Below are positions 14,414-30,148 of a DNA stretch of 32,269 bases, piece after piece; the first letter of the stretch is position 1, and every line of letters starts with the position of its first letter. Under the pieces are notes generated by a model. That model saw only the letters and a program-made list of their open reading frames with translations. It made no database searches and was not told the DNA's origin. Both the position numbers and the translations under genes were made by a program. This DNA is from an uncultured Clostridia bacterium (GTDB lineage: Bacteria; Bacillota; Clostridia; Christensenellales; UBA1242), in the NCBI GenBank assembly GCA_947589655.1, contig CANQCE010000002.1, positions 1 through 32,269 of the forward strand. Reading direction: 5' to 3'.

Positions 14414-15189
14414 AGTTCATTCTCGTCAAATTCAAAATAGTCGCCATGCGAAACGCGAGTTTTTTGCTTTTTCACTTTTTTCTTGCCCTTTTGTGATTGT
14501 ATAATTTTGCTTGGCTTTATAAGGAAGAACAAAATCATTATACTTGGCACGCTAATTGCAACAATAAGCAAAATTTGGGTGCCTACGGACAGCCCTGAAA
14601 AATTTGTGGCGGAACTTGTGAACACGCTTTCATCAATTGTATCAAAAATTTCCAAATTGGTTTCAATTTTTGGAAGCCTATCAATAAATGTGGAGTAAAC
14701 ATATCCAAACTGCACGCCGTTTTCGGTTTGCAAACTGCAATATGCCCACAATGTGTTTTCGTATTTAAGTTCTTCGCCCTGCATATCGCCATAATAATTC
14801 AAGGTGACGTCATCGCTCACGGCGGTTAAAACCTCCGCTTTTGAAGGCGAGGTGTAAAGATAGTGCGGTTCAAACAACATAAACTGCGCACTTGGATAGG
14901 CGTTTGTTGGAGTGCCACTCATCAAAGCCACATCGCTTTTTTTTACATATCCGCTTTTGTCTTTAAAGGTTGCCTCGTAAAAATTGCCTTCCACACCAAC
15001 AACTTTCACAAAATAAGAATATGGAAGTTGAAAAAGTGCACTTTCCTCGTTGGGCAAGGCATAAAAAAGCACATTTGTTGTTTGGATTTTGGCAAAATAA
15101 TCCTTTTTGGCAGCACCTTCTGCTCTTGAAATTGGAGTGGCGGCAAAAATTGCCAAAAAAATTAAAACGGATAAAAATATTTTTTTCAT
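14410..15189 (-). CDS. Secreted, C-terminally membrane-anchored protein with two SH3b-like domains
   Basis: Start at MKKIFLSVLIFLAIFAATPISRAEG (signal peptide). SH3-like blocks YFAKIQTTNVLFYALP...YFVKVV...ATFKDKSGYVKKSDV and a second copy. TM helix ILLIVAISVPSIMILFFLI, then a basic tail. The upstream TTG extension is rejected. Confidence 0.65.
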   Translation of the reverse strand: MKKIFLSVLIFLAIFAATPISRAEGAAKKDYFAKIQTTNVLFYALPNEESALFQLPYSYFVKVVGVEGNFYEATFKDKSGYVKKSDVALMSGTPTNAYPSAQFMLFEPHYLYTSPSKAEVLTAVSDDVTLNYYGDMQGEELKYENTLWAYCSLQTENGVQFGYVYSTFIDRLPKIETNLEIFDTIDESVFTSSATNFSGLSVGTQILLIVAISVPSIMILFFLIKPSKIIQSQKGKKKVKKQKTRVSHGDYFEFDENEL

Positions 15190-15284
15190 GGCACAAGGAT
15201 AACTCTTTTTAAGGTTAAAACGGCAGCAGATTAATGTCGAATTTTTTTTATTTTTAAATAATTTTATCAAAGGGGGGTGTGGCA

Positions 15285-16715
15285 ATGGATTTAAACTTGG
15301 TTAAAAAAATTTTGAAGGTTGAAAAAGAAATTGATTTGCGTTTTTATGCAAATAAATTGAATTTTTACAATAAAAAAGGAAAAGTTCACAAAAAACAGAT
15401 TAAATTTCATAAATGCAAAAAAAGAAATCGCTGGGTTTTTGGCGGCAATCGTTCAGGCAAAACTGAGTGTGGCGCTGTGGAGGTGGTGTATTTTGCTTGC
15501 GGCGTGCATCCTTACAAGAAAAACAAAGTTACTGAAGGCTGGGTGGTATCCCTTTCCCGTCAGGTGCAAAGGGATGTGGCGCAAAAGAAAATTTTAGAGT
15601 ATTTGCCGACCTCTTACATTCAAGATATTGTTATGGTCAGCGGAGGAAAAGACAGTGCCGAAAACGGTGTGATAGATTTTATTTTGGTGCGCAGTGAGGC
15701 TGGCGGCATTAGCAAAATTGGCTTTCGCAGTTGCGACCAAGGCAGAGAAAAATTTCAGGGGGCGTCACTTGACTATGTTTGGTTTGATGAGGAACCGCCT
15801 TATGACATTTACTTAGAGTGCAAAATGCGTGTTTTGGACAGGCAAGGCGAAATTTTTGGCACTATGACGCCACTTAAAGGGCTAACGTGGGTTTACAACA
15901 CAATTTATCTTAATGACAAGCAAGACAAGGAAGTTTGGTGTGAAACTATGGAGTGGGCGGACAACCCTTTTTTGTCTAAAAAAGAAATTGCCAGCCTAAC
16001 CAAAACTTTGCCAGCCGAAGAACTTGAAAGCAGGCGATATGGCAAGTTTATGCAAAATGGCGGAATGGTTTATAACGAGTTTGATGAAAATGTGCATGTG
16101 ATAGAACCCTTCAATATACCAGAAGATTGGCAAGACAATATTTCAATTGACCCGGGGTTACACAATCCGCTTTCTGCACACTTTTATGCGGTGGATTATG
16201 ATGGCAATGTGTATGTTATTGCCGAGCATTTTGCGGCAGGACTAACTGTTGCACAGCATGCCAAAGCAATTTGGCAAATTGCCCAAAGGCTTAATTGGAA
16301 AACGGACAGTCGCGGTTTTTTGCAGGCGCTGATTGACCCTGCTGCATTGCAGAGAACGCTCTCCGGCCCTCAAAATGTTGTTGACCTTTTTTATGAGCAA
16401 AAAATTTTAACCAACACAAAGGTGAACAAAGATTTATTTGCTGGGATATCGGTGGTGAAATCTTATCTTCGCACCGCAGACGGCAGAGCAAGGCTTTTTA
16501 TCTTTAAAAACTGCGTGAATTTGATAAGAGAAATTAAAAGTTATTGGTGGGGCAGTGATGATGTGCCAATCAAGAAAGATGACCATGCGCTGGATGAACT
16601 GCGCTATTATTTGATGACAAAGCCAATTAAAATGGAAAAAGTTGCAAAAACAGAAATACAAAAAGACAAAGAAAAAATGGCTAGGCGTTTAAAGTTTGAA
16701 AAATTTGGGAGATAA
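15285..16715 (+). CDS. terL: Phage terminase large subunit
   Basis: ATG 15285 lies 7 nt after AAGGGGGG. Walker A FGGNRSGKTECG, Walker B LDYVWFDEEPP, coupling motif GTMTPLKG. C-terminal nuclease motifs ISIDPG and KKDDHALDELRYYLMT. Confidence 0.9.
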   Translation: MDLNLVKKILKVEKEIDLRFYANKLNFYNKKGKVHKKQIKFHKCKKRNRWVFGGNRSGKTECGAVEVVYFACGVHPYKKNKVTEGWVVSLSRQVQRDVAQKKILEYLPTSYIQDIVMVSGGKDSAENGVIDFILVRSEAGGISKIGFRSCDQGREKFQGASLDYVWFDEEPPYDIYLECKMRVLDRQGEIFGTMTPLKGLTWVYNTIYLNDKQDKEVWCETMEWADNPFLSKKEIASLTKTLPAEELESRRYGKFMQNGGMVYNEFDENVHVIEPFNIPEDWQDNISIDPGLHNPLSAHFYAVDYDGNVYVIAEHFAAGLTVAQHAKAIWQIAQRLNWKTDSRGFLQALIDPAALQRTLSGPQNVVDLFYEQKILTNTKVNKDLFAGISVVKSYLRTADGRARLFIFKNCVNLIREIKSYWWGSDDVPIKKDDHALDELRYYLMTKPIKMEKVAKTEIQKDKEKMARRLKFEKFGR

Positions 16716-16747
16716 AATAAAAAAATAAGCAAAAATTAAGAAATAAT

Positions 16748-16776
16748 TTGTCAATATATTTGGAAAAATATATTAA
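16748..16776 (+). promoter_or_regulatory. Candidate promoter for the GLUG surface-protein gene
   Basis: TTGTCA (16748-16753), 17-nt spacer, TATTAA (16771-16776). Confidence 0.4.
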
Positions 16777-16807
16777 AATTTGTTAAAATGTAAAAAAGAG
16801 GGTTAAT

Positions 16808-19147
16808 ATGAAGAAAATTCCATTTTTAATTTCGTTTATCTTCTGTTTGGCGGCTGCCTTTGGCGGCACAATCTTCTTTAACCCAAAAACAACTGCCGCG
16901 GCAGATGGAACTTTTAAACAAATATCAACTGCAAGCGATTTGCAAACGTATCTGTCTTCTTACACTTCCGAGAGCGCAGAACTTACAACCAACATTGACA
17001 TGGAGGGGGCCCAGTTAAGCCCAATTGGAACAGAAACCTCGCCATTTGAAAAAACTTTTGACGGCAAAGGCTTTAAAATTTCAAACTTTACCATTGATGC
17101 CCAGGAAGCAAACAGCCTTGGTTTATTTGGCGTGGCAAAAGGGGCGGTTATAAAAAATTTGGCGCTTGAAAATGTTGCAATAAATGTTGACGATGCCGTT
17201 ATTATTAGCGTTGGCGCTCTTGTTGGCAAGGCGGAAAACTGCACATTTGAAAACATTTCCATTTCAAGCACAGATGTTAAATTTAATTATGATTTTTCTT
17301 TAACAGGCAGCCAAGTAAACTTTGGTGTGCTTGCTGGAACGCTTGACAGTTGCAGCCTTACAAACATTATAAGCAGAGCAAACGCTTTGACCAACGGTTG
17401 GTCTTTGCCTGAAACTGACAACAAAAAAACATACAACTTTGGCGGAGTGGCTGGAAGGTTTTTAAATTCCAACTTTAAATTTGGTGTTGTGGAGGCAAAT
17501 TTTAACGCAGAACTTGCACAAGATTTTGACGGCACAGCAAATTTTGGTGGGGTGGCAGGAGAGGTTTCACAAGGCGAGAGCACACTTGTGAACTTGGCAA
17601 TGCAAAACACCTTTGCTTTAACCAACAATTCAACCGCAGCAAGCCTTCATGTTGGCGAAATTTGCGGAGAAATTAAAGCACCAGTTCCAACGCCGGGGAA
17701 TATTTCGTTTATTCATTATAAGAAAAATGACAATGTTGATGTTTTTGGCGAAAAGGCCAATTTTGCATATGAAAACCCATCTAACCAAGATTTTGTAACC
17801 GAAAGCATGTATGAACTGCATTACCTTGCACCAGATGGAAATTCTTATAACTATTTCAACAATCAATCTTGGCATCCACTTTATGGAATTTGGGATTTTA
17901 ACTCGGTTTGGTATGTTGCAGCATCCAATATTCAGTTGCAAAATTTCTCATCCGATTTTAATGTTAGCGTGGCAAATGTTGATACCAGAGTTATGGAACT
18001 TGCCAGCCTTCCTACAAAGTTTAACTATGGCGACAGGGTTGAAATAATTTTCAACTTTAAAACCAACGATGAAGGCACATCATTGAAGGAATTTTACGAA
18101 CTGACACAGATACGAAGAAACAATGCCAATGTTGCGGCAATAGTTCCAACTTCAAATGGCTACAAAGTTTCTGGCAGCGAGGCATATGATATTGAACAAA
18201 CAGAAAGCGGCTTTAAAATTATCATAAAAAGTTTGGACCGCTCAACAAGCGGCACTTACACTGTCATTGCCAAAGAAAAATACTTTAACGCCAAAGTGAC
18301 ATCTCGCCTTTATGTTGACGGCGAACTTCAATCAGAAATTCCTGCATATGTGTATCATGCGGATAACGGCAGTTTAGGAACACCTACCTCCGAAACTTTG
18401 CAGTGGTCCATGGCTTATGATATGGCTTATCGCATTGAAACAAGGGCAAAGTCCAACACTACAAATTCCACGGATGGCACGCTGTTTTGGTATATGGTTG
18501 GCCATGACGAGCAGGGCAGGGAAACCACAACTCAAATTCCTGCAGACTATATAAGCAATGGGGTGTTGCAGTTCACCTTTGGGCATGGAATTTTTACAGG
18601 CGACATTGAAATTTTTGCACGCTACACAGATGATTCTTGCAAGGTGACTTTCACCTTTAACGAGGGCGTTGCAAGGATTGTGGTTAGCCGAAGCATTACA
18701 GTGGATAAATCGGGAACGGTTGAACCAATTTCCAAAGATGAGACTGCATTGTGGTTAGAAATTTACATTTACAAAGAATACACTTTTGACTATCAACGTT
18801 TTGTGGACGAACTTGCATATAAATCGGAAGACCCAACGCGAGTTTTTTGCACTCCGCAAGAACAAAATGAAAGCGGCGATTTAAAATATTACAGTTTTCT
18901 TGTTGACATGACACTTCTGCAGCGCTCGGATTTTTCTGACGCCTTTCCTATTGAAGTTAAAACAAATTCAAACTTTAAAACCAATCGTGCTTGGATTTGG
19001 TGGCTTGTTGGTGGCATTTGTGGGGCAATTGTAATAACGCTTGTTGTTTTGCTTATCGTTTGGCTTGTCCGTAGAAATCGCTTTGGCGGTGACGGCGGCG
19101 GCAAAGTGAAAATTAAAAAGCAATCTTATAAAGACATGTATTATTAA
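16808..19147 (+). CDS. Large surface protein with GLUG-motif repeats, signal peptide and C-terminal TM anchor
   Basis: Signal peptide MKKIPFLISFIFCLAAAFGG...TAAADG. GLUG-type repeats SLGLFGVAKGAVIKNLALENV, VGALVGKAENCTFENI, NFGGVAGRFLNS and NFGGVAGEVSQG. C-terminal TM WIWWLVGGICGAIVITLVVLLIVWLV followed by RRNR. Confidence 0.75.
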   Translation: MKKIPFLISFIFCLAAAFGGTIFFNPKTTAAADGTFKQISTASDLQTYLSSYTSESAELTTNIDMEGAQLSPIGTETSPFEKTFDGKGFKISNFTIDAQEANSLGLFGVAKGAVIKNLALENVAINVDDAVIISVGALVGKAENCTFENISISSTDVKFNYDFSLTGSQVNFGVLAGTLDSCSLTNIISRANALTNGWSLPETDNKKTYNFGGVAGRFLNSNFKFGVVEANFNAELAQDFDGTANFGGVAGEVSQGESTLVNLAMQNTFALTNNSTAASLHVGEICGEIKAPVPTPGNISFIHYKKNDNVDVFGEKANFAYENPSNQDFVTESMYELHYLAPDGNSYNYFNNQSWHPLYGIWDFNSVWYVAASNIQLQNFSSDFNVSVANVDTRVMELASLPTKFNYGDRVEIIFNFKTNDEGTSLKEFYELTQIRRNNANVAAIVPTSNGYKVSGSEAYDIEQTESGFKIIIKSLDRSTSGTYTVIAKEKYFNAKVTSRLYVDGELQSEIPAYVYHADNGSLGTPTSETLQWSMAYDMAYRIETRAKSNTTNSTDGTLFWYMVGHDEQGRETTTQIPADYISNGVLQFTFGHGIFTGDIEIFARYTDDSCKVTFTFNEGVARIVVSRSITVDKSGTVEPISKDETALWLEIYIYKEYTFDYQRFVDELAYKSEDPTRVFCTPQEQNESGDLKYYSFLVDMTLLQRSDFSDAFPIEVKTNSNFKTNRAWIWWLVGGICGAIVITLVVLLIVWLVRRNRFGGDGGGKVKIKKQSYKDMYY

Positions 19148-19731
19148 TTTAATTTAGATAAATTTTTATATCTATTTGCAAGGGCGACACACTTTTGGTG
19201 TGCATCGTCCTTTTTTCTCGTTCCATCCATGCGTGAGTTTTTAAAATGCAGGCAAAAATGCCCAATAACGCCATTGCTTTGCACGCTATTGTATCCATGT
19301 GGATAAAGGCTTATGCTGGCAGGGATATAAGAATACTCATTAAGTTTCACAAGAACTGGGCGGCGCTGCCACGTAAAGTTAGAATTGCAAATTTCAGTTA
19401 TAAATTTAAAATCGGCATCCGAAATTGGCTCAATATCAAAATGATACAATCCGCCTGTGCGCACAGAGTTAAAATTTACGCCAGTTTGTATATCAAAAAC
19501 TTCAAATTGGCTGCCCACAGGCAAAATGGAATTCACACTTTTAAATTCCAGTGGCAACAATTGAACATTGTTGGCAGTTTTCGGTTGCAGTTCAATTTCG
19601 TGAAAATTATTTTGCTTATACACCACACTTTCTGGCACATTTGTGTAGTTTGAAAGCACAGGATATGGAAAAATTGCCGCAAAAATTGCACAAGACATTA
19701 AGAATGTGAAGATAAAAAAGATTTTTCGCAT
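19144..19731 (-). CDS. Hypothetical secreted protein or lipoprotein
   Basis: N-terminal hydrophobic leader MRKIFFIFTFLMSCAIF (possible lipobox LMSC). No clear SD. Its stop overlaps the stop of the GLUG gene by 4 nt (TTAA). Confidence 0.55.
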   Translation of the reverse strand: MRKIFFIFTFLMSCAIFAAIFPYPVLSNYTNVPESVVYKQNNFHEIELQPKTANNVQLLPLEFKSVNSILPVGSQFEVFDIQTGVNFNSVRTGGLYHFDIEPISDADFKFITEICNSNFTWQRRPVLVKLNEYSYIPASISLYPHGYNSVQSNGVIGHFCLHFKNSRMDGTRKKDDAHQKCVALANRYKNLSKLN

Positions 19732-19823
19732 GAAACTATTTTGTTTTATTAGTTCGTTTTAATTCAAGCCAAAACGCATTTTATTGATGTCATAAAAATT
19801 AGCGTTTTTAAATACTTTTTAAT

Positions 19824-20786
19824 ATGGCAAAAGTTTTTATGCTTGTTTTTTTGATTTTTGGCACGGTGGTGGGCTCGGGATTTTCCAGCGGCAAAGAGAT
19901 TATGGTGTTTTTCAGCCGCTTTGGCGCAATCTCTTATTTTTACATTGCTCTGGCAGGGCTGCTTTTCTTTGCGCTATTTTACTTTTTTCTTTCGCGCGGA
20001 AAAGCCATTTTGAAATGTCTGGAAAAATTTAAGTTCCTAAACATTTTTATCACCTTTAACAGCCTTATTTTTTGCGCATCTATGTTTGCAGGCTTAAAAA
20101 GTTTGTTCTCTTATTTTCCAACTTGGGCGGAGATTTTGCTGATTGCTTTTGTGCTTGTGCTATGTTTTGTTATCACTCTTAAAGGCATTGGGGGCTTGGA
20201 GAAAACAAATTTTTTTCTCATGCCACTTACAAGCGTGTTTTTTCTGGCGGTGCTTATTTTTGGCATGACGCAAAAAAGCGAATTTGTTTTTGAAACATCC
20301 ACTTGGGCAGGCTTTTTGTATAGCCCACTGTATGTTGCCTTGAACACTTGTATGAGCGGCATTGTGATTTGCAAGGTGGGTGACGGCCTAACAAAAAAAC
20401 AGACCTTTTTTGCAAGCCTGTTTTCATGTGCACTCCTTCTTGTTTTTCTTTTTTTAGGGAACTTTGTGCTTTTGTCCAGCGCCCAAATGTTGCACAGCGA
20501 AATGCCGTTTCTTTCCATTGCTTCGGCAAATCCTATATTTTTTTGCCTAGATTATTTTGTTATTTTGTCAGGTTGTTTTACAACATTAATTTCGCTTTGT
20601 TACACTCTTAAAATTTCTTTTGATAAACATATAGCAAAGCCCAAATTGTCCTGCCTTGCTGCCGTTTTAATTCCTTTTCTTTTAAGTGGAATTGGGTTTT
20701 CTGGGATTGTGTCTTTTCTTTATCCTATTTGCAGCGTTCTGGGCATATTTCTTCTTTGTTTTATGCTGTTTTACAGGGCAAATTAA
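19824..20786 (+). CDS. YkvI-family-like polytopic membrane protein (putative transporter)
   Basis: N-terminus FLIFGTVVGSGFSSGKEIMVFFSRFG matches the YkvI-type GAGFASGqEi..FF pattern as I recall it. About 9-10 TM helices. No SD. Confidence 0.6.
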   Translation: MAKVFMLVFLIFGTVVGSGFSSGKEIMVFFSRFGAISYFYIALAGLLFFALFYFFLSRGKAILKCLEKFKFLNIFITFNSLIFCASMFAGLKSLFSYFPTWAEILLIAFVLVLCFVITLKGIGGLEKTNFFLMPLTSVFFLAVLIFGMTQKSEFVFETSTWAGFLYSPLYVALNTCMSGIVICKVGDGLTKKQTFFASLFSCALLLVFLFLGNFVLLSSAQMLHSEMPFLSIASANPIFFCLDYFVILSGCFTTLISLCYTLKISFDKHIAKPKLSCLAAVLIPFLLSGIGFSGIVSFLYPICSVLGIFLLCFMLFYRAN

Positions 20787-21592
20787 CATTTGCTTTTAAC
20801 GCGTTTTTCAAGCAAACTTACAAGCGCATACATCACGAACGCAAGCAGGCAAAGTATGGTTGTGGCGGCCATTACAAGGTCAATTTTAAATATTTGTCCG
20901 CCATAGACAATCAAATAACCAAGTCCAGCCTTGCTGGTTAAATATTCTCCCATAATGCTGCCAACCCAACTCATGCCAACATTTATTTTAAGAACAGAAA
21001 CAAAGTCTGGCATGGCGTGCGGCAAAATTAATTTGGTGAAAATTTGGAATTTGCTGGCGTTCATAGAGCGTAAAAGCAGAATTTTTCCTTCCTCTACAGA
21101 TAAAAACGCTGAAAGCATGCTCATAACGGTTATAACAATGCAAATAAGCACACACATTGCCACAATGGCATTGGTTCCAGCACCTACCCACAAAATTATA
21201 ACAGGTCCAAGGGCGATTTTTGGCAGTGAGTTTAGCACCACAATATATGGTTCAAAAATTTTGCGAACTTTCTCGTTCCACCACAGCAGCACTGCTATTA
21301 TATATCCTGCCACAGTGGCTATTGCAAAGCCTATCAGTGTTTCGTATAAAGTTATCCAACTGTGTGTTAAAAGGGTGCCGTTTTTGGCAAGGGTTATTAT
21401 TTGCGAGACTATTCGTGATGGGCAACTAACAAAAAATGGGTCAATCACTTTTGTTTGTGCGAACAGTTCCCATAAACCAATAAAGGCAACAAGGATAAAA
21501 ATTCTGAAAAATATTATTAAAAACTTATTGCGTTTCAGCCTTTTTACATATTCTTTGTGCGCCTTGGTAAAATTAACTTGTTTTTTCTTCAT
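20783..21592 (-). CDS. ABC transporter permease (NitT/TauT/SsuC-type)
   Basis: BPD-transporter core SLPKIALGPVIILWVGAG, and ILPHAMPDFVSVLKINVGMSWVGSIMGEYL. ATG 21592 follows GGAGG and overlaps the end of the ATPase gene by 20 nt. Confidence 0.85.
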   Translation of the reverse strand: MKKKQVNFTKAHKEYVKRLKRNKFLIIFFRIFILVAFIGLWELFAQTKVIDPFFVSCPSRIVSQIITLAKNGTLLTHSWITLYETLIGFAIATVAGYIIAVLLWWNEKVRKIFEPYIVVLNSLPKIALGPVIILWVGAGTNAIVAMCVLICIVITVMSMLSAFLSVEEGKILLLRSMNASKFQIFTKLILPHAMPDFVSVLKINVGMSWVGSIMGEYLTSKAGLGYLIVYGGQIFKIDLVMAATTILCLLAFVMYALVSLLEKRVKSKC

Positions 21593-22343
21593 TTTTAAGT
21601 TGCCTCCATATATACTCAAAAAGTCCGTTAAAGCGTTCATCCTCTCGTTTTTTAAACGAAGTTTTGCCAACTAGCGAAGGCACAAGGGTGTCTTTCACTG
21701 TGGCAGGGCGACTGGACAGTATTATAATTTTGTCCGACATTGAAAGCGCCTCGGAGATATCGTGCGTTACAAGCATGGCGGTTTTTTTCTCGCTTTTGAT
21801 AATTTGATAAACATCATCACAAACGGACAGACGCGTTTGATAGTCAAGCGCAGAAAATGGCTCGTCAAGCAGCAAAAGTTTTGGCTCTAATGCCAGTGTG
21901 CGTATAAGGGCAACACGCTGGCGCATTCCGCCTGAAAGTGAACGCGGCTTTTGGTCTTTAAAGGCGTAAAGGTCGTATTTTTTTAAAAGTTCCTCTGCCA
22001 AAGCCAGTTTTTCTTCCATATTTTTTGGCTTTTGAATTTCCAACCCCAACTTAATATTTTTCCAAACAGTGCGCCACTCGAATAAAAAATCTTTTTGGAA
22101 CATATATCCAATCTTTTTTCGGTCTATTTGCTCATAACCATCCAAAAGAATTTTTCCAGAAGTTGGCTTTAAAAGCCCTGCGGTTAATGAAAGTATTGTG
22201 GTCTTTCCACATCCGCTGGGTCCAACAATTGATACAAAATGTTCCTTTTCAATGTCAAAACACACATCTTTAAGTGCAAAAATCTCGTCTGTTTTGGTCT
22301 GATAATAAAAATTAACATTGTCAAATTTTAAAATGTTCTCCAT
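21573..22343 (-). CDS. ABC transporter ATP-binding protein (nitrate/sulfonate/taurine-type)
   Basis: Walker A GPSGCGKTT, signature LSGGMRQRVALIRTL, Walker B LLLLDEPFSALD, H-loop VTHD. Confidence 0.9.
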   Translation of the reverse strand: MENILKFDNVNFYYQTKTDEIFALKDVCFDIEKEHFVSIVGPSGCGKTTILSLTAGLLKPTSGKILLDGYEQIDRKKIGYMFQKDFLFEWRTVWKNIKLGLEIQKPKNMEEKLALAEELLKKYDLYAFKDQKPRSLSGGMRQRVALIRTLALEPKLLLLDEPFSALDYQTRLSVCDDVYQIIKSEKKTAMLVTHDISEALSMSDKIIILSSRPATVKDTLVPSLVGKTSFKKREDERFNGLFEYIWRQLKNEEKTS

Positions 22344-22366
22344 AAGTTAAAGTCCTTTACAAATAC

Positions 22367-22395
22367 ATTTTATTTTGGGCGGAAATTTTTGTGAA
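22367..22395 (-). promoter_or_regulatory. Candidate promoter of the ABC operon
   Basis: On the minus strand: TTCACA (reverse complement of 22390-22395), 17-nt spacer, TAAAAT (reverse complement of 22367-22372). Confidence 0.4.
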
Positions 22396-22419
22396 AAGGA
22401 CATTTTTTGGCATATTTTG

Positions 22420-22448
22420 TTGAAAAACTGATTTTTGCGATGTATTAT
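22420..22448 (+). promoter_or_regulatory. Sigma-70-type promoter of the phage-derived operon
   Basis: TTGAAA (22420-22425), 17-nt spacer, TATTAT (22443-22448). GAGGGGG SD and ATG 22472 lie downstream. Confidence 0.5.
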
Positions 22449-22471
22449 GTTCGCAAAGTTGTGAGGGGGTT

Positions 22472-22750
22472 ATGGACGAAGACGAAATTTTGCAGATGCT
22501 TAAGAAAAAGGCTTTGGGCTTTGTTTCTGATGAGATTGTGGAGGAATATTGTCAGGACAAAAACGGAGAGCAAGTGCTTTGCAAGCGCAAGGTTACAAAA
22601 AAGGTCAATCCGCCCGATTTTTCCGCTTTAAAATTTTTGCTGGAACGTGGCGAACTTGATGATGACATTTCCAAAATGACAGATGAGCAACTTTTGCGTG
22701 AAAAAGAGCGGCTTTTACAACTTTTAAAAGAAAAGGAGAACAAAAAATGA
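22472..22750 (+). CDS. Putative phage terminase small subunit-like protein
   Basis: 92 aa. KKKALGFVSDEIVEEY...KKVNPPDFSALKFLLER plus a coiled-coil tail resembles small-terminase proteins of Firmicutes phages as I recall them. It sits at the first position of the packaging operon. Confidence 0.5.
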   Translation: MDEDEILQMLKKKALGFVSDEIVEEYCQDKNGEQVLCKRKVTKKVNPPDFSALKFLLERGELDDDISKMTDEQLLREKERLLQLLKEKENKK

Positions 22751-22962
22751 AAATGACAAAGTGCAGAAGTGACCTTAAATGTGATTTCTATGGCTGCAAA
22801 AACAATGCCAAATATGCTTTTAGCACAAAAGGCTTCATCCGCAAAGAACTGGTTTTTTGCGAGGATTGCATGAAAAGCATGTTCGAGTGTTTTTCCAAAA
22901 ACCTTGTGCCAAAGGGAGTGGAATCGGCATTTAAAGGCAAAAGAAAAAAGGAGAATTTATGA
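22747..22962 (+). CDS. Small Cys-rich (zinc-ribbon-like) protein
   Basis: 71 aa with seven Cys residues (C-x6-C-x4-C...C-x2-C-x6-C). ATG overlaps the upstream TGA, and its stop overlaps the portal ATG. Confidence 0.5.
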   Translation: MKMTKCRSDLKCDFYGCKNNAKYAFSTKGFIRKELVFCEDCMKSMFECFSKNLVPKGVESAFKGKRKKENL

Positions 22963-24866
22963 AAAAAGAAAAAGACATTGTAAAAGAAACCCTTCAAGAT
23001 TTTGAAAACAGAATTTTGCAGCGAAAACCATTTGAAAGCCAGTGGCTGTTAAACATGAATTTTTACATGGGGAATCAGTTTTGTGATATAGGCTATGGCG
23101 GGGCGGTTCGCGAACTTGACAAGCAATATTTTTGGCAGGAGAGAGAGGTTTTCAATCACATAGCACCAATAATTGACATCCGCATGGCAAAACTTTCAAA
23201 ACTTAAACCAAAAATGCATGTTGTGCCAGCAACAGATGATGCGCAAGATGTTTACACGGCAAAGGTTGGCAAAAAAATTCTGCAGGCAACATCCAACAAG
23301 GTGAACCTTATAGCCAAATGCAATCAAGCAACCAAATGGAGTGAAATTTGTGGGACAAGTTTCTTTAAGGTGACATGGAACTCTAACCTTGGGCAAGTGG
23401 TTGCCATTGAAGACGATGGAAGAAAAATAAAAACTGGCGATATTGAGGTTTCTGTTTGCTCACCATTTGAAATTTATCCAGATTCCGCCACGCATGAAAC
23501 TTTGGAGGATTGCCAAAGTTTAATTCATGCAAGGGCATATACCTCCGAGCAGGTTAAGCAAATGTTTGGCGTGGAAGTGGAAGGCAAAGATGTCAATGTG
23601 TTTTCGCTTGACGGAATAAGCAGCTCTTTGGGTGGACTTGGTTATTCTGGACTTGCCACAAGGGTTATTGAAACCATTAAGCACGATAGCGTTATTGTGC
23701 TTGAAAAATATGTTAAGCCAAACGCTGATTACCCTAATGGGCGGCTGATAATCATTGCTGGCGACAAATTGGTTTACGAGGGCGATATGCCTTACATAAA
23801 TGGCGTTGACGGCAAGCGTGAATTTCCTTTTGTGCGTCAAATTTGCAGCGAAGAAGTTGGCAATTTTTGGGGAGTTTCTATGATTTCTCGCCTTATTCCA
23901 GTGCAGCGAGCGTTTAACGCGGTCAAAAACCGAAAACACGAATATATAAATCGTTTGACGATGGGTGTTTTGGCAGTTGAAGATGGCAGCGTTGATATGG
24001 ACAATCTGGAAGAAGAAGGCTTGGCACCGGGGAAGATTTTGGTTTACAGACAGGGGGCAAACCCTCCAAAGTTCTTGGGCGGAGAAAGTGTTCCTACCGA
24101 TTTTGAAAAGGAAGAACAAGAACTTTTGGACGAGTTCTCCAAACTTGGCGGAACCAGCGAGATAGGCACAATGGAGGCGATGTCGCAATCAATTTTTGGT
24201 GTTGCTCTTGAACTTTTGATAGATGAAAACGAAAGCAGGCTCATTTTTACAACCGACAGCATGAAATCCGCCATAAAAACAGTGGCAAAGCATATTTTAA
24301 GGCTTTACAAACAATTTGCAACCTTTCCAAGGCTGTTGAAGGTTGTGGGCGAGAATGGCGATTTTGAAGTGCTTTATTTCCAGAGCAGCGATATTTCAAG
24401 CGATGATGTGCAATTTGATACCGACAACGAAAATAACAACACTTTGTCTCAGCGCCGCGAAATGATTTTTTCGCTTTTGGATAAAGGGCTTTTGCAGGAC
24501 GAAAATGGGAAAATAACGGCATCAATGAAGAACAAAATTCTGCAAAATATTGGCTTTGGCGTCGGCATATTCCGCCATGTCTTTGTGATAATCGAGATGG
24601 TTGGGGGAGAGATTGGTTTTGGCGTTTGGGATAGCAGTGTTGATTTAAGCGAACTTCAAACCAAAAATGCGGACATGGAAAATGTTAGGATGGCAGAGGG
24701 CAAAGATGTGCCAGTTAAAGAGATTGACCAACACGCTTTGCATATAACTCAGCATACTGCATATATGCTTAAAAACATTTATAGCAAAGAAAATGTGAAC
24801 GGCAAAGTTGAACAGAAGTTTTTAGAGCATATAAAGGCGCATAAAGCCGCATTGAAAGAAGAATAA
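22959..24866 (+). CDS. Phage portal protein
   Basis: AAGGAGA SD. N-terminal W.LNMNFYMGNQF portal signature, 635 aa, positioned directly before scaffold and capsid. C-terminal DQHALHITQHTAYM block. Confidence 0.85.
   Translation: MKKEKDIVKETLQDFENRILQRKPFESQWLLNMNFYMGNQFCDIGYGGAVRELDKQYFWQEREVFNHIAPIIDIRMAKLSKLKPKMHVVPATDDAQDVYTAKVGKKILQATSNKVNLIAKCNQATKWSEICGTSFFKVTWNSNLGQVVAIEDDGRKIKTGDIEVSVCSPFEIYPDSATHETLEDCQSLIHARAYTSEQVKQMFGVEVEGKDVNVFSLDGISSSLGGLGYSGLATRVIETIKHDSVIVLEKYVKPNADYPNGRLIIIAGDKLVYEGDMPYINGVDGKREFPFVRQICSEEVGNFWGVSMISRLIPVQRAFNAVKNRKHEYINRLTMGVLAVEDGSVDMDNLEEEGLAPGKILVYRQGANPPKFLGGESVPTDFEKEEQELLDEFSKLGGTSEIGTMEAMSQSIFGVALELLIDENESRLIFTTDSMKSAIKTVAKHILRLYKQFATFPRLLKVVGENGDFEVLYFQSSDISSDDVQFDTDNENNNTLSQRREMIFSLLDKGLLQDENGKITASMKNKILQNIGFGVGIFRHVFVIIEMVGGEIGFGVWDSSVDLSELQTKNADMENVRMAEGKDVPVKEIDQHALHITQHTAYMLKNIYSKENVNGKVEQKFLEHIKAHKAALKEE
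24549..24625 (+). repeat. 14-bp direct repeats (13/14 identical) flanking a 49-nt spacer; a 63-bp in-frame insertion in the portal gene
   Basis: ATTGGCTTTGGCGT at 24549-24562 and ATTGGTTTTGGCGT at 24612-24625. The protein reads NIGFGV-GIFRHVFVIIEMVGGE-IGFGVW. Confidence 0.85.
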
Positions 24867-24877
24867 AGGAGAATTTT

Positions 24878-25492
24878 ATGGAAGAAGAAATAAAAAACGA
24901 GGAACAACCGAACATTGAACCTTCTGTGGAAGAAAATGTTACAGGCTCCTCAAGTGAACAAGCCGAAGTTGCTGACAAGGGAGAAGTTAAAGCAGAAAGG
25001 GGCGTTCCCATTGGTAAATTTAAAAACGCAGAGGAACTTCTTAAAGCCTATAACAACTTGGAGGCCGAGTTCACAAAGAAAAGTCAAAAATTATCCAGTT
25101 TAATGAAAGACAAAATGGAAGAAAAGCCAGATGATGCTTTTAAAACATTCCTTTCAAAAAACCAAGAGGCGGCATGTTATGCTGAAGAACTGCAAAACCG
25201 AATTGGCGAACAAGATAATGTTGACGAGGCGGCTTATCAGCGTGCTTGGGAGGGGCTTTTATACGAAAAACTGACCTCTAATAACAGAGCAAGCGAGCCG
25301 TTTGTTAAAAACTTAGTTAAAGATGACTCTATTCAGCAGATGGTCATCAAAGATTACTTGAAAGCACTTGCAGCCAAACAGGCGCCAGTGGTTATGGCAT
25401 CGCAAAACGGAGAACATATCACAAAAAACGTTCAAGAAAAGCCAGACACCTTTGATGCGGCTAAAAAAGTGGTTATGCAAATGCTTTCTTAA
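24878..25492 (+). CDS. Phage capsid scaffolding protein
   Basis: Acidic N-terminus, then GKFKNAEELLKAYNNLEAEFTKKSQKL, which is typical of Firmicutes phage scaffold proteins. Helical. Located between portal and capsid. Confidence 0.75.
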   Translation: MEEEIKNEEQPNIEPSVEENVTGSSSEQAEVADKGEVKAERGVPIGKFKNAEELLKAYNNLEAEFTKKSQKLSSLMKDKMEEKPDDAFKTFLSKNQEAACYAEELQNRIGEQDNVDEAAYQRAWEGLLYEKLTSNNRASEPFVKNLVKDDSIQQMVIKDYLKALAAKQAPVVMASQNGEHITKNVQEKPDTFDAAKKVVMQMLS

Positions 25493-25512
25493 AAACAAAA
25501 AGGAGAAAAAAC

Positions 25513-26673
25513 ATGATAACTTTATCAAGTGCAGAAAATGTGCTTAAAGATGTTTATTTGGGTGTTATTGCAGACCAAATAAACACAAAAACAAATCCTC
25601 TTTTTGCCAGAATTAGAAAAAGCACAAGAAACATTGTTGGCAAAGAGGTAAGAGTTGTTGCACCTATTGGCATCAACGGCGGAATTATGGCAGGAACAGA
25701 AGACGACACACTCCCAGAAGGGGTTGATACACCATATCTTTCTTTTGTTGCACCACTTAAAAACCTTTATGGAAAATTTGAAATTAGCGACAAAGCCATA
25801 CGTTGCTCGTCAACAGATGTAAACTCTTTTGTAAATCTTTTGCAAGATGGCATGGACAGCCTGCTTAAAGCAAGCATATTTAACCTTTCCAGAATGCTTT
25901 ATGGCGATGGCACAGGCCTGCTTGGAACAATCAAAGAATTCACTTTGCCAACGGCAACTGTTAGCAATGTGGAAAGTTTTGCCCCAGGCATGTATGTTGA
26001 TATTTACACAGGTGAAAGCCTTACTGAAGCAAAAGTGTATGTAAAAGCAGTGGACAAAGCCGCAAAGAAAGTTACTTTTGGCTCTGGGACAACCTTTACC
26101 GCTGACGATAAAATTTATGTTCACAAATCTAAGAACAACGAAATTGTTGGCTTGAAAGGGATTGTTTCAAACACATCTTTGTATGGCGTTAAAAGAGCAG
26201 ACTATCCTGTAATCAATGCAAAAACTTACACTGCTTCCGATGAGGCCTTTGATGAAAACTTTGTTCAAAAGATTATTGATGAACTTGAAATGAACGGAAC
26301 GGCAGTTAACTTTATCAACTGCTCTTACGAACTTAAAAGATTGTATCAACAATACATGACATACTATAACAAAAACATTGAATTTACAACATTAGAAGAT
26401 GGAACAAGGGTTATCACACACCTTGGGACACCAATTGTCCCAACCAACCATGTTGATGCAGGCGAGTGCTATTTCCTGAACACTGACGACTTTGTATTCT
26501 ATGAACTTGGTGATTGGAAATGGCTTGAAGACGAACAAGGCAGAATTTTAAAACAATTTGCTGATAAGCCAGCTTACTCTGCAACACTTGTTAAATATAC
26601 GGAACTTGTTTGCCATAAGCCATCTGGTGTTGGTTTTGTTAGCAATTTAAAAACAACTATGCCAGAGGTATAA
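25513..26673 (+). CDS. Phage major capsid protein (HK97-fold type presumed)
   Basis: AAAGGAGA SD, 386 aa, positioned after the scaffold gene. N-terminal LKDVYLGVIADQINTKTNPLFARI is capsid-like. Confidence 0.8.
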   Translation: MITLSSAENVLKDVYLGVIADQINTKTNPLFARIRKSTRNIVGKEVRVVAPIGINGGIMAGTEDDTLPEGVDTPYLSFVAPLKNLYGKFEISDKAIRCSSTDVNSFVNLLQDGMDSLLKASIFNLSRMLYGDGTGLLGTIKEFTLPTATVSNVESFAPGMYVDIYTGESLTEAKVYVKAVDKAAKKVTFGSGTTFTADDKIYVHKSKNNEIVGLKGIVSNTSLYGVKRADYPVINAKTYTASDEAFDENFVQKIIDELEMNGTAVNFINCSYELKRLYQQYMTYYNKNIEFTTLEDGTRVITHLGTPIVPTNHVDAGECYFLNTDDFVFYELGDWKWLEDEQGRILKQFADKPAYSATLVKYTELVCHKPSGVGFVSNLKTTMPEV

Positions 26674-26676
26674 AAA

Positions 26677-26994
26677 ATGAAAAAGTCATTTGAAATTGAA
26701 AGCGATTGCTTGGACATTGTAAAGCGGCTTAAAAGCATTGATAAAGATTATTTTGTGGTGTATAACTTACAAAAGCAGGCTTTTGAACTGCACAGCCACG
26801 CACAAAGAATAACTTATTGCCTTACTTTTCCGTATGAAACTTTGGACGAGCGTGCAATTGTTTTAACTTTAAAAACGCGTGTTCAAAACAGCGATGCTTT
26901 GTTCGCCGAAATGGAAGCGGACAATGAAAGGCTACGCCAAGCAAAAATTGCCCAAGTTTTTAATGACTTTAAGGAGAAACTTTATGACAGTTAA
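26677..26994 (+). CDS. Hypothetical phage-module protein (105 aa)
   Basis: Tightly coupled ORF following the capsid gene. Confidence 0.5.
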   Translation: MKKSFEIESDCLDIVKRLKSIDKDYFVVYNLQKQAFELHSHAQRITYCLTFPYETLDERAIVLTLKTRVQNSDALFAEMEADNERLRQAKIAQVFNDFKEKLYDS

Positions 26995-27541
26995 AGACAT
27001 TATAAAATTGGTTTGTGATTTTGTGGGAGAGGGTGACATTGCGCAAAAGTTGACCTTAAAGCAGGCGCTTTCCGCCGCTGAGCGGAGGAAGGTGGAACAG
27101 ATGACAAACTGCTTTAACCTTGTAAATCAGGAGATTGCAAGTGACTATTTGCCGCTTTTAAAGAAAGAAACTTTAAAGGAAGAAACTTCCATGATTAATT
27201 TTGCCGATTTAACCGAAACTGTTGTGCATATTTTGGAGATAAAAAACCGCTTTGGAATTAGCCTGAAATTCAGGCTTTTTCCAAATTATGCGGAAATTTC
27301 TGGCCGTGCCAAAACGGTTGTTTACAGTTTTCTGCCAAAAGAGCTTACGCAGGAGAGCGAAATTGAAATGCTCTGCGGATTAAGCCCAAGAATTTATGCA
27401 TATGGCGTTGCCAGTGAATACCTTTTAATTGACGGCTTAACCGATGACGCAGAAATTTGGGAAGAAAGGTTTAAAGAAAGTTTGTTTATGCTTTCAAGAA
27501 AGTCTGGCGAGCACCGCTTGCCACGCAGGAAATGGCTATGA
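26984..27541 (+). CDS. Putative head-completion/adaptor protein (185 aa)
   Basis: ATG 26984 follows AAGGAGA (26971-26977) and overlaps the upstream gene by 11 nt. Size and position match adaptor proteins in P22/T7-like gene order. The function is inferred from position only. Confidence 0.5.
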   Translation: MTVKDIIKLVCDFVGEGDIAQKLTLKQALSAAERRKVEQMTNCFNLVNQEIASDYLPLLKKETLKEETSMINFADLTETVVHILEIKNRFGISLKFRLFPNYAEISGRAKTVVYSFLPKELTQESEIEMLCGLSPRIYAYGVASEYLLIDGLTDDAEIWEERFKESLFMLSRKSGEHRLPRRKWL

Positions 27542-29031
27542 TTTTTTATAAGAACACCAAAAAATTTAAGCCAATTTCTAAAAAAGACCTTGTTTTTTCC
27601 ATTTTTAATCAGGGGATAGTTTCTGGAGAAGATGATTCTGTTACAAAACCTACACAATGCAAATGTTACTTCAATCTTTCTGTTGCAGACGGTGCTTTAA
27701 AAAATGGTTTGGGCTTTGAGGACTTTCAAGTTCCAGCATCTTTGGACAACCTTGAAAACTGTCATGGATACGATTTTGCTTCAAAAATTGATGAAATTGA
27801 TGCCATTTGGTTTGACAGGTGGTTCAGCGTGGAGGATGGGCAGTATTATTATCAGATGATGCTGATGGATTCTGCTTTTAAAATTTTTAGCGTGCCACTT
27901 TTGGACCAATATAATGGCATGGTTTGGAGTAGGAGTAGCAAGGTGCAAAGTAAGCCGTTGTTTGTTTGCCAATATCGCATTGAAAATGACGACTGCACAT
28001 TGTTTTTTACCAAAGAAGGCATGATAAGGCTGGGCACTGAAAGTGAGGGCTTTTATGATAAAGTTCCGCCATTGATTTCTTGTGTTGTGCACTACGACAA
28101 CTTTTTTGGAGTGACAAACACAAACCGAAACACACTTATTTATACAAAAAATCTTAATTTAAAAAACTGGTCGGACGAGGAGAGTTCCACTATTGAATTT
28201 TTGGATAACCGTGGGGCTTTTACAAAACTTGTTGCGTTCAACGATTATGTATATTTATTCAGAGAAAATGGGATAACAAGAATTTCTCTTTATACTAACA
28301 AAAGCGATTTTTCTTTCACTCATCTGTTCACTTCGCCGTCAAAAATCTATGAAAATTCCATTTGCGTTTGTGGCGACAAGGTGCTTTTTGTTACCAGAGA
28401 TGGACTTTATGCGTTTAACGGAAATTCCGTGGCAAAAGTGGCGGAAAATTTAAACTCACTTTTGCAAAATTTGGACAACACAAATTGTTCGGCGGCGTGC
28501 CTTGATGGAAAATATTATTTGGCGACCAAATGCAACTTTTCAGACGGCAGGCAAGTTGGCTGTGAGGAAGGCGAGTTTTTAAATAACGTTTTATTTCAAT
28601 TTGATATTAACACCTTTGATGCCGAAATTTTAAGAGGTGTGGATATTGTTAACGTTTTGGCAATTGATACGCCATATTTAAGCAAACTTTGCGCATGCTT
28701 CCGTGGGGAAAACAAACAACGCGTTGGGCAACTTGTGCACAATGGAAAGGTTTTTGAAAATTCCAATTTAAAAATTTGGAGTTCGTTCAAAACCGATTTG
28801 GAATATGCCAATAGACGCAAAAAAATTAAGGAGATAATCTTGACAACGGCGCATGATGTTTCTGTGGAAATTATCAGTGACGAGGAAGAAAAAACCTATC
28901 AGTTCAAAGGCAGTGAAAAACAGCAAAGATTGCCTATTTCTGTTGAAGGAAAAACCTTTCAATTTATCTTTAAAACCGATGCAGAGGGCATTGACCTTAA
29001 AAAGCCAACAATCATTTTTAATGTGGCGTAA
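27532..29031 (+). CDS. Putative tail-hub/nozzle-like structural protein (499 aa)
   Basis: ATG overlaps the upstream stop. Beta-rich, repeat-like blocks (FFGVTNTNRNTLIYT, YVYLFRENGITRISL, KVLFVTRDGLYAFNG, GKYYLATK). Position is equivalent to P22 gp10. The function is inferred. Confidence 0.45.
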   Translation: MAMIFYKNTKKFKPISKKDLVFSIFNQGIVSGEDDSVTKPTQCKCYFNLSVADGALKNGLGFEDFQVPASLDNLENCHGYDFASKIDEIDAIWFDRWFSVEDGQYYYQMMLMDSAFKIFSVPLLDQYNGMVWSRSSKVQSKPLFVCQYRIENDDCTLFFTKEGMIRLGTESEGFYDKVPPLISCVVHYDNFFGVTNTNRNTLIYTKNLNLKNWSDEESSTIEFLDNRGAFTKLVAFNDYVYLFRENGITRISLYTNKSDFSFTHLFTSPSKIYENSICVCGDKVLFVTRDGLYAFNGNSVAKVAENLNSLLQNLDNTNCSAACLDGKYYLATKCNFSDGRQVGCEEGEFLNNVLFQFDINTFDAEILRGVDIVNVLAIDTPYLSKLCACFRGENKQRVGQLVHNGKVFENSNLKIWSSFKTDLEYANRRKKIKEIILTTAHDVSVEIISDEEEKTYQFKGSEKQQRLPISVEGKTFQFIFKTDAEGIDLKKPTIIFNVA

Positions 29032-29138
29032 ATGAAAGTTTTATTTTTTGATAAAACAAAATTTTTTCGCAAGGCGCATTTTTATAAAAGCGGAGATTTT
29101 TCTGCCATTAGAGCTCTGCTTTTTGAAGGGGAATAAAA

Positions 29139-29369
29139 ATGGATTTTTGGAAAGAGGTTATAAGCATAGTTGTCAGCAATGGTGTGTTTGCTGTGCTTTT
29201 TGTTTTACTATTTTTCTATCAACTGAAAGACAGCCGAAACCGAGAGGAAAAATATCAGCAAACCATAGAGCAACTTACAACTCATCTGCAGATTTTGGAA
29301 GATGTAAAGGAAGATTTAACAGATATAAAGGAAATTTTAAAAATTAACAGCGATGAAAAATTTTTTTAA
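29139..29369 (+). CDS. BhlA/UviB-family holin-like peptide
   Basis: GVFAVLFVLLFFYQLKDSRNREEKYQQTIEQL parallels B. subtilis BhlA GPFAVLFCWLLFYVMKTSKERESKLYNQI as I recall it. Single N-terminal TM plus a coiled coil. GAAGGGG SD. Confidence 0.8.
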   Translation: MDFWKEVISIVVSNGVFAVLFVLLFFYQLKDSRNREEKYQQTIEQLTTHLQILEDVKEDLTDIKEILKINSDEKFF

Positions 29370-29592
29370 CAAATTTAAAACTTACAGTTTTTGGGTGAGT
29401 TTGTCTTCTGCTGTTGTGCTGCTTATAAACAGTATTGGCAGAATTTTTGGGTTTACAATTGAAAACCAACTTGTTGAAGATTTAATCCTTTCTTTTGCAG
29501 GAGTTTTGCTGGTTCTGGGCATTGTGACAATGAACAGCGGCAACAAAGACGATGGCGAAGATGACAATGATGACGAAGGTCAGGATGAATAA
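29353..29592 (+). CDS. Putative two-TM holin (SPP1/XhlB-like) with an acidic tail
   Basis: 79 aa, TM helices FWVSLSSAVVLLINSIG and LILSFAGVLLVLGIVTM. Overlaps the bhlA-like gene by 17 nt. C-terminus is DDGEDDNDDEGQDE. Confidence 0.55.
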   Translation: MKNFFNKFKTYSFWVSLSSAVVLLINSIGRIFGFTIENQLVEDLILSFAGVLLVLGIVTMNSGNKDDGEDDNDDEGQDE

Positions 29593-29630
29593 AAATAAGA
29601 TAAAATGTATAAACATGCATAGAAAAAATA

Positions 29631-29666
29631 AAAGGACCGCAGAGAATTTTCTGCGGTCTTTTTTTA
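29631..29666 (+). terminator. Rho-independent terminator closing the phage-derived operon
   Basis: GACCGCAG (29635-29642) pairs with CTGCGGTC (29651-29658), followed by a T7 run. Confidence 0.75.
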
Positions 29667-29749
29667 TTGGTTTTTGCCCAAAATGAGTTAAATTTTGCCT
29701 AAAAATTATTCTAAAAGCCCTATATTTTTTAAATTTTTATGAAAAACCC

Positions 29750-29778
29750 TTGAAAAGTGTAAAGAATTATGCTATTAT
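29750..29778 (+). promoter_or_regulatory. Extended -10 promoter for the membrane protein-polA unit
   Basis: TTGAAA (29750-29755), 17-nt spacer including TGc, then TATTAT (29773-29778). Confidence 0.55.
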
Positions 29779-29800
29779 ATAAACATAAAGGGAGGAAATT

Positions 29801-30148
29801 ATGAAGAAAACAATTTACACAATTCTTTCGATAGTTTCAATTGCATATATTGTCTTCTTGGTGCTGGATGTGCTAAGAGACCATGGCGGATGGACTCCAA
29901 ATTTGGGCTGGTTTGAAGATTGGTTCGATTTTATTGTTCGCTTTGGTGGCATTGCAATCATTTTCTGCTTTGCACTTGTGAACTTTACAGGCAACCCTCT
30001 TAAAACAGTGTTCTTCATTTTGCTTATTTTGGCAATTGTTTGCTATGTTATCGTGCTTATTGTTCCTGATTTCTTCAGCAACATTTTCAGCAAAAAGGAA
30101 GAAACTGAGGCCGCTATAACACTTATAAGGGCGTTTGTCCTTAAATAA
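29801..30148 (+). CDS. Small polytopic membrane protein (115 aa)
   Basis: AAGGGAGGA SD and three to four hydrophobic helices. Lies immediately upstream of polA. Confidence 0.6.
   Translation: MKKTIYTILSIVSIAYIVFLVLDVLRDHGGWTPNLGWFEDWFDFIVRFGGIAIIFCFALVNFTGNPLKTVFFILLILAIVCYVIVLIVPDFFSNIFSKKEETEAAITLIRAFVLK

Follow-up and report, generated by a model that had tools for sequence, protein, structure and literature searches.

A candidate short-patch illegitimate recombination event: a 63-bp insertion matching foreign murD in inverted orientation within a phage-type portal gene of an uncultured gut Clostridia bacterium

Introduction

In template switching, which includes copy-choice, fork stalling and template switching (FoSTeS), microhomology-mediated break-induced replication (MMBIR) and bacterial quasipalindrome mutagenesis, the strand being synthesized departs from its template at a microhomology, copies a short stretch of another sequence, often in inverted orientation, and returns. 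The product is a templated insertion flanked by microhomology, and the classical bacterial examples use a nearby template within the same molecule. Filler-DNA capture by end joining at double-strand breaks likewise yields short inserts of foreign origin, whose joints each show a few bases of microhomology. In SPDIR (short-patch double illegitimate recombination), described by the Harms laboratory, ectopic single strands from inside or outside the genome anneal at microhomologies, or at extended ones in which mismatches and gaps may occur, and enter the nascent strand to leave microindels of three to ~100 bp (10.1101/2023.11.22.568220; 10.1101/2024.07.02.601687). SPDIR is defined as an in vivo annealing of single-stranded DNA (ssDNA) at the replication fork, and its frequency is controlled by RecA, DprA, and single-strand exonucleases. 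Here, we describe a locus with a comparable footprint in a window of 32,269 nt (the whole stretch of DNA analyzed: contig CANQCE010000002.1, positions 1 to 32,269, of GenBank assembly GCA_947589655.1, an uncultured Clostridia bacterium of the Christensenellales, UBA1242). A gene for a phage-type portal protein in this window carries 63 additional bp whose reverse complement encodes part of a MurD ligase. We consider it probable that this patch arose in vivo by microhomology-mediated short-patch illegitimate recombination, as SPDIR-type ssDNA integration or, equivalently, a replicative template switch.

The portal locus resembles SPDIR in several respects. The ectopic patch is short (a 63-bp insertion with 58–68 nt of donor-derived sequence, against a published range of 3 to ~100 bp), an extragenomic donor is possible, both illegitimate joints lie at microhomologies or extended microhomologies with mismatches, the donor is otherwise heterologous, and the outcome belongs to the microindels and polymorphism clusters that SPDIR produces. 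It differs in that it was found in a contig of an uncultured anaerobic gut Clostridia bacterium rather than in a selection experiment, with another species as donor, and in that, as a pure insertion, it leaves every recipient base in place, since both anchors on the recipient side fall at one point. The contig preserves the footprint, from which we infer the ssDNA and fork steps and the in vivo origin. Compared with classical template switching, the template here is a gene of another organism, and foreign DNA must therefore have been in the cell. Compared with filler-DNA capture, one joint shows an imperfect match of 19–20/21 nt that end joining neither requires nor predicts. Chimeric metagenome reads and contigs likewise join the sequence of two co-resident genomes in one contig, but usually through a single junction, placed at a repeat common to both that equals or exceeds the k-mer in length, whereas this locus has two junctions 58–68 nt apart, with 4–12 and 6 nt of exact identity and a return to the same base. 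The case adds one new instance, a single event, to a known mutation class and is not a new kind of system.

Results

A 63-bp insertion interrupts a conserved motif of the portal gene

The site is defined by three features on the plus strand:

22959-24866, plus strand: portal ORF (open reading frame) of 635 aa, podovirus-type (P22/SU10-like) according to Pfam, PHROG and fold
24549-24611 (equally writable as 24554-24616, owing to the repeat), plus strand: insertion of 63 bp, or 21 codons, relative to all homologues in the alignment
24612-24625, plus strand: second repeat copy, the portal's own ATTGGTTTTGGCGT, which encodes the conserved IGFGV of the [IL]GFG[VI]W motif and aligns with all homologues

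A first-pass annotation of the window, made from its letters, had drawn attention to a 14-nt word at 24549-24562 that recurs at 24612-24625, and had read the 63 bp between the two starts as an in-frame insertion. The two copies are present as described, ATTGGCTTTGGCGT and ATTGGTTTTGGCGT, respectively, matching at 13 of 14 positions and both lying within the portal ORF. Direct repeats of this quality are not rare here: eight 13/14 repeats at spacings of 15–100 nt occur in the window, compared with 2.6 +/- 1.5 expected from first-order Markov simulations, and the repeat was rejected as evidence in itself. The significance of the site comes instead from the homologue alignment and the donor match. 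What looks like a direct repeat is one homologous stretch present twice, once from the donor and once as the portal's own, with zero recipient bases lost.

The insertion encodes portal residues 531-551 (IGFGVGIFRHVFVIIEMVGGE), among which residues 533-551 (FGVGIFRHVFVIIEMVGGE) are fully donor-coded. An alignment of portal homologues had been suggested as a check on whether these 21 residues are unique, and they proved so in every alignment. More than 5800 portal homologues were recovered from the protein database, the nearest of which are 70–74% identical, mostly 613–621 aa in length, and encoded on contigs of up to 673 kb, with many contigs of 100–670 kb. In a MAFFT alignment, all 119 of the best homologues run from ...(I/V)(L/M)E-N straight to [IL]GFG[VI]W, with a gap facing the window that is exactly 21 columns long. 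The same exact gap is found in 85/85 diverse homologues (23–76% identity), a set that includes 72 representatives at 23–48% identity. The 63 nt are missing from two related portal contigs in sequencing runs X1 and X2 as well. Searches with blastp against the syntenic loci L081 and L083 showed one 21-aa insertion in the portal, and a gene-by-gene comparison with both loci over 20 kb of synteny identified it as the sole large indel in well-conserved proteins.

The insert is an antisense fragment of murD from another lineage

The donor-derived sequence can be delimited in two ways:

24554-24611, minus strand: minimal donor-derived tract of 58 nt, antisense of 19 murD codons (-A)
24542-24617, minus strand: full window–donor similarity of 76 nt, corresponding to a 25-residue antisense peptide, from blastn and Logan contigs

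The reverse complement of 24540-24638 encodes a 33-aa peptide with a match to the Pfam domain Mur_ligase_M (PF08245; 30.7 bits, E 3.8e-7, gathering score 24) that covers profile positions 86-110 only, in agreement with the Mur-ligase motif first noticed on this strand. When extended into the flanks of the donor contigs described below (45 aa), the peptide is a classic Mur-ligase segment and reaches 46.2 bits with the Pfam Mur ligase model. The motif had originally been called MurE-type; its best solved relative is MurD (3lk7, E 2e-5), with MurE entries including that of E. coli (1e8c) close behind. Only ~25 codons of the window are Mur-like, rather than a complete mur ligase gene, and the ORF list of the window contains no antisense ORF of at least 50 aa overlapping 24549-24625. 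This stretch is a gene fragment and not a mur ligase gene. The window also has a cell-wall gene of its own at 6274-7548, for a murA-like enolpyruvyl transferase (Pfam EPSP_synthase, E 3e-77), after which comes one for an FtsQ-type POTRA protein; the murA-like gene has no sequence relation to the inserted patch.

The spacer between the repeat copies had been expected to show nucleotide identity to a mur-ligase gene, and such genes were found in metagenome contigs and in one genome assembly. Logan contigs from runs X1, X2, and X3 (three independent gut metagenomes, X3 from rabbit gut) match the window at 75/76 positions over 24542-24617 and at 58/58 over 24554-24611, with the sole mismatch at 24549 (A in the window, G in the donor contigs). 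These contigs part from the window right after 24617 (loose end CACCACCGCC...) and on either side continue into GC-rich sequence unlike that of the window (...GGGGCGCTGATAGC ahead of the match and CACCACCGCCACC... behind it), so that outside the patch the donor is heterologous to the recipient. Scanning one genome for each GTDB species with a degenerate pattern recovered locus L001 (contig CANQXN010000066.1, "uncultured Clostridia bacterium Lapin-032__bin134"), from a rabbit-gut metagenome-assembled genome, which encodes exactly the donor peptide. Window positions 24542-24617 align with L001 1691-1616 on the opposite strand at 73/76 identity (blastn, E 4e-30). Among 80 murD loci compared, L001 matches the 58-nt core at 57/58 positions, and the best of the other 79 reaches 49/58. 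Of the three positions at which L001 departs from the window, the X1-X3 contigs agree with the window at two, and when aligned on L001 they belong to its murD lineage.

The L001 ORF at 992-2446 is a MurD equivalog (TIGR01087, 338.3 bits, NCBIfam cut-off 211.95) and falls far below the cut-offs of the murC, murE, and murF models. A murE origin is ruled out by these scores. L001 has a GC content of 56% and the window one of 38%, while GC at third codon positions (GC3) is 0.69 in L001 murD, 0.60 in the tract when read in the murD frame, and 0.41 in the portal gene, a composition that fits a foreign origin of the tract. The lineage match of the 58-nt core, together with this GC contrast, identifies the donor type, as far as sequence can tell, as murD of another, ~56% GC gut Clostridia organism. 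A source within the organism's own genome, as first implied, did not hold up: the tract matches that other lineage, found in rabbit and other gut samples. Contigs of the recipient and donor lineages co-occur in runs X1 and X2, and both lineages are also present in rabbit-gut samples. Transfer in the reverse direction, from portal to murD, is ruled out because the motif is conserved across Mur ligases and missing from portals.

An exact search with 48 nt of the tract in GTDB representative genomes gave no hit; the species representative, L001, has one base different. The tract had no match in plasmids, and in phage records only matches of 76–81% to unannotated fecal contigs were found. Three further observations concern the donor lineage. 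The X3 rabbit-gut contig carries a 12-nt in-frame insertion (GATGCCCGGAAC) relative to L001 at about position 1797, plus several single-nucleotide polymorphisms, which shows strain-level variation within the lineage. Run X10, a metatranscriptome (RNA-seq of "whole organism metagenome"), contains 3/8 murD tract words, and the donor-lineage murD is probably transcribed in at least one further sample type. Run X1 contains a 59-nt dead-end Logan contig of depth 4 that joins a donor murD 30-mer (window 24564-24593, identical to L001 1640-1669) to the unrelated AT-rich sequence TCATTTATTATTATGTCAAGTATGAATAT; this AT-rich part was found neither in the window nor in any fetched locus.

Both joints lie at microhomologies and preserve the reading frame

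The joints between portal and donor sequence are as follows:

24542-24562, no strand assigned: left joint, an extended microhomology in which portal GCAAAATATTGGtTTTGGCGT and donor GCAAAATgTTGGcTTTGGCGT agree at 19/21 positions
24612-24617, no strand assigned: right joint, a 6-nt microhomology ATTGGT, read in the donor as ACC AAT (T-N of murD) and in the portal as ATT GGT (I-G)

In the orientation of the window, the donor reads ...TAGC GCAAAATgTTGGcTTTGGCGT CGGCAT...GGGGGAGAG ATTGGT CACC..., and the uninserted portal, as deduced from the second repeat copy and the homologues, would read ...TTCT GCAAAATATTGGtTTTGGCGT TTGGGAT.... The window has the portal base A at 24549 and the donor base C at 24554, and the left crossover therefore lies within TTGG (24550-24553), inside the 19/21 match; the paralogous position 24617 has T, the portal state. 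The right crossover falls in ATTGGT (24612-24617), and both joints are thus microhomologous, as in SPDIR. The homology around the left repeat copy proved longer than first described: the repeat itself is present, but the matching stretch extends over 19–20 of 21 nt at 24542-24562. A rough estimate of the left-joint duplex gives -20.2 kcal/mol, compared with -25.9 kcal/mol for a perfect match. Portal and donor share exact words of at most 12 nt at the left joint and 6 nt at the right joint. As neither joint has a shared word of at least 20 nt, collapse of a de Bruijn graph (k >= 21) is excluded as the cause of either junction, and therefore a physically chimeric molecule existed and was sequenced.

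Both anchors set the portal frame in codon register with antisense murD, reading AKANI on one strand and NIGFG on the other. In L001 this antisense register contains one stop in 484 codons, and 98% of its 21-codon windows are open. The donor murD is covered, in the exact codon register, by a 553-aa antisense ORF (L001 1016-2677, minus strand, including ...GVGIFRHVFVIIEMVRGEIGHH...), which accounts for the stop-free inverted patch and, through the register of the anchors, for the portal ORF remaining open. Long antisense ORFs are typical of GC-rich genes, and gene callers might report the one in L001 as a spurious protein. Given this almost stop-free register, the open frame was rejected as a sign of selection.

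The insert forms a loop in a portal encoded by a conserved head-gene cluster

The recipient gene is a P22/SU10-like portal by both family match and fold. The ORF at 22959-24866 scores 72.7 bits against Pfam P22_portal (cut-off 26.1) and E 3e-35 against PHROG 156 ("portal protein"). An AlphaFold2 model built from an 86-sequence diverse alignment has a mean pLDDT of 87.5 and a pTM of 0.82, with low-confidence segments only at 220-229 and 535-560. Top Foldseek matches to the model are the portals of SU10 (7z44), Pan3, Pa223, N4, PaP3, P22, and T7, with probability 1.0 for SU10, Pan3, N4, PaP3, P22, and T7. Searching PDB sequences with a profile of the portal alignment gave no match, and these relatives came from the fold search. 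Modeling the structure had been suggested as a way of placing the insertion; in the AlphaFold2 model the insert is predicted as a disordered loop between helices 521-531 and 563-579 of the C-terminal helical region. From its position after the Pfam-covered core (residues 60-482), this loop may lie in the crown region of the portal. The insert splits the conserved helix-[IL]GFGxW junction, in which G553, F554, G555, and W557 are invariant (alignment A2).

Genes around the portal are arranged in the following order:

Before the portal: a sigma-factor-like gene, terminase large subunit (15279-16715), a 779-aa protein, two further genes, ATP-binding cassette (ABC) permease and ATPase, two small ORFs
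After the portal: a 204-aa protein, major head protein (25513-26673, PHROG 14242), three more proteins, holin-like ORFs, polA

This cluster (13886-30148) corresponds to 678-17130 of L081 and 51-10934 of L083 and includes a virion-structural-like protein. It is flanked upstream by a 2-oxoacid_dh-like gene and downstream by polA and ruvX. Its order and housekeeping flanks are kept in other species at 39–85% amino acid identity, and 6 kb of sequence, including the ABC transporter, separate the terminase from the portal. Pfam and PHROG scans of the larger ORFs of the cluster, with the smaller ORFs left unscanned, revealed no integrase or tail family. The description of the recipient as a phage structural gene is therefore right as to the portal, but its setting is a conserved chromosomal head-gene cluster with no obvious prophage and is not that of an intact integrated prophage. 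From gene content and conservation, the cluster looks like a vertically inherited, domesticated phage-derived head module, either gene transfer agent (GTA)-like or for another particle. The head module belongs to a small-genome gut Clostridia lineage ("Ca. Caccovivens" and relatives). Within it, a 220-aa ORF with a GTG start (26879-27541) overlaps the preceding 105-aa gene (26677-26994) by 116 nt; since its orthologues in L081 and L083 are 185–186 aa long, the real start is probably further downstream, near 26980.

Discussion

The donor match, the joints and the codon register agree with the original proposal, in which a stretch of a mur-ligase gene was copied, inverted, into the portal gene at a microhomology without closing the frame; its origin in vivo is what we infer from these features. 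In the sequence of events proposed here, single-stranded murD DNA of another species sharing the habitat would have entered the cell, and the foreign strand would have paired with the portal at the fortuitous 19–20/21 match (antisense murD ...AKANIL... against portal ...QNIGFGV...). The nascent strand would then have left the portal template at ...ATTGG, copied ~58 nt of the donor, and returned once its newly made 3′ end, ...ATTGGT, matched the site it had left. A return by ATTGGT to the departure point would explain both where the patch ends and why nothing was deleted. The expected product is a pure insertion of 63 bp with no recipient base lost, flanked by the 13/14 "repeat", through which the portal would have gained a hydrophobic loop of 21 residues. 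The single-stranded intermediate and the order of these steps are presumed, and uptake of the DNA may have followed any of several routes.

Several observations weigh against a natural event of this kind. The junctions have no read-level or independent-assembly support: their words occur in no indexed sequencing run, the junction and tract patterns were not found in JGI (Joint Genome Institute) metagenome contigs, no protein found in a 5.8-billion protein database carries the insertion, and the tract was not found in GTDB representative genomes. The best runs hold 8–31% of the words of the window, the runs that hold parts of the recipient organism have no coverage at the insertion site, rabbit-gut runs X6-X9 have nothing at 24200-24900, and the raw-read run X4 yielded one read. 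Exact look-ups of four proteins encoded in the window gave no record. Relatives were often assembled at low coverage (L082, coverage ~3), where a single chimeric read could be built into a contig. Because the insert disrupts a conserved motif region of the portal, it may be deleterious, and its in-frame length is a 1-in-3 coincidence and no proof of selection. Measured rates of SPDIR, moreover, come from Acinetobacter baylyi alone and amount to ~1e-13 to 1e-10 per locus.

These points bear most directly on the possibility that the chimeric molecule was made in vitro, by template jumping between portal DNA and co-resident murD DNA during library amplification or whole-genome amplification, and was then assembled at low coverage. 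We regard this as unlikely, though it is the alternative with the most in its favor. The sequence is a metagenome contig; donor-lineage depth is 8–10 in X1 and X2, where that of the recipient is 2–5; the relative L082 was assembled at ~3x k-mer coverage; the junctions are seen nowhere else in databases, indexed runs, or metagenome contigs; and the second odd junction on the same murD 30-mer in X1 indicates that chimeric-looking tips do occur there. An artefact of this type, however, would need two switches within 76 nt, whereas in vitro chimeras normally have a single junction, and its second switch would have been primed by 6 nt (ATTGGT) only and yet have landed on the exact base of departure. 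A tethered nascent strand would make such a double switch naturally, whereas chimeras of the polymerase chain reaction are very unlikely to show one. A contig of 32 kb implies a depth at which a minority chimeric path would form a bulge and be removed, graph collapse itself is excluded by the lack of a shared word of at least 20 nt, and the 20-kb syntenic comparison showed no other anomaly.

If the molecule formed in the cell, a double-stranded murD fragment may instead have served as filler DNA in the repair of a double-strand break by microhomology-mediated end joining. The footprint would be alike, with a short foreign insert, microhomologies of 4–7 nt and 6 nt, and no recipient loss, and the end-joining and replicative or annealing routes cannot be separated by sequence alone; the long imperfect match of 19–20/21 at the left joint is nevertheless predicted by strand-annealing models and is not needed by end joining, which leaves this route improbable. 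A donor within the same genome, either the organism's own murD or a horizontally acquired copy, would correspond to the commonest source in published SPDIR experiments. Against it stand the 58/58 identity to a ~56% GC lineage whose members differ from one another at 3/76 positions, the score of only 49/58 for the best other murD, and a tract GC3 of 0.60 in a portal of 0.41 and a window of 38% GC; in this AT-rich genome, a native murD should hardly share every synonymous site with the tract, and we consider an intragenomic donor very improbable. That no transfer took place, and that the segment is a native, lineage-specific portal loop resembling a Mur ligase by chance, has nothing in its favor except the open reading frame. 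This reading is refuted by the absence of the segment from every homologue aligned (119 + 85), by the Pfam Mur_ligase_M match over the gathering threshold, and by nucleotide identity at 75/76 positions with murD contigs and at 73/76 with L001 (blastn E 4e-30), and its probability is close to nil. Taken as a whole, a natural and heritable interspecies short-patch illegitimate recombination in the wild, with the foreign donor known to lineage, is the reading to which we lean, at somewhat better than even chances.

Should the junctions prove artefactual, the locus would serve as a warning that double-junction chimeras can survive assembly and be deposited as protein sequences. If the event is real, the locus provides a search image for metagenome mining, namely a unique in-frame indel combined with an exact match to a heterologous gene of a co-resident species. 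If short-patch illegitimate recombination did create the insertion, it would be a rare case from nature of a mutation class for which nearly all examples come from selection experiments with a single laboratory species, and one in which the donor, the orientation, both joints, and the nucleating imperfect homology are all directly legible. Foreign ssDNA would then reach the replication forks of the recipient lineage, by competence or another form of uptake, and fragments much too short for homologous recombination would cross species, creating in-frame novelty or damage in conserved genes. SPDIR-like microindels would thus act outside Acinetobacter and move coding fragments between species without homologous recombination.

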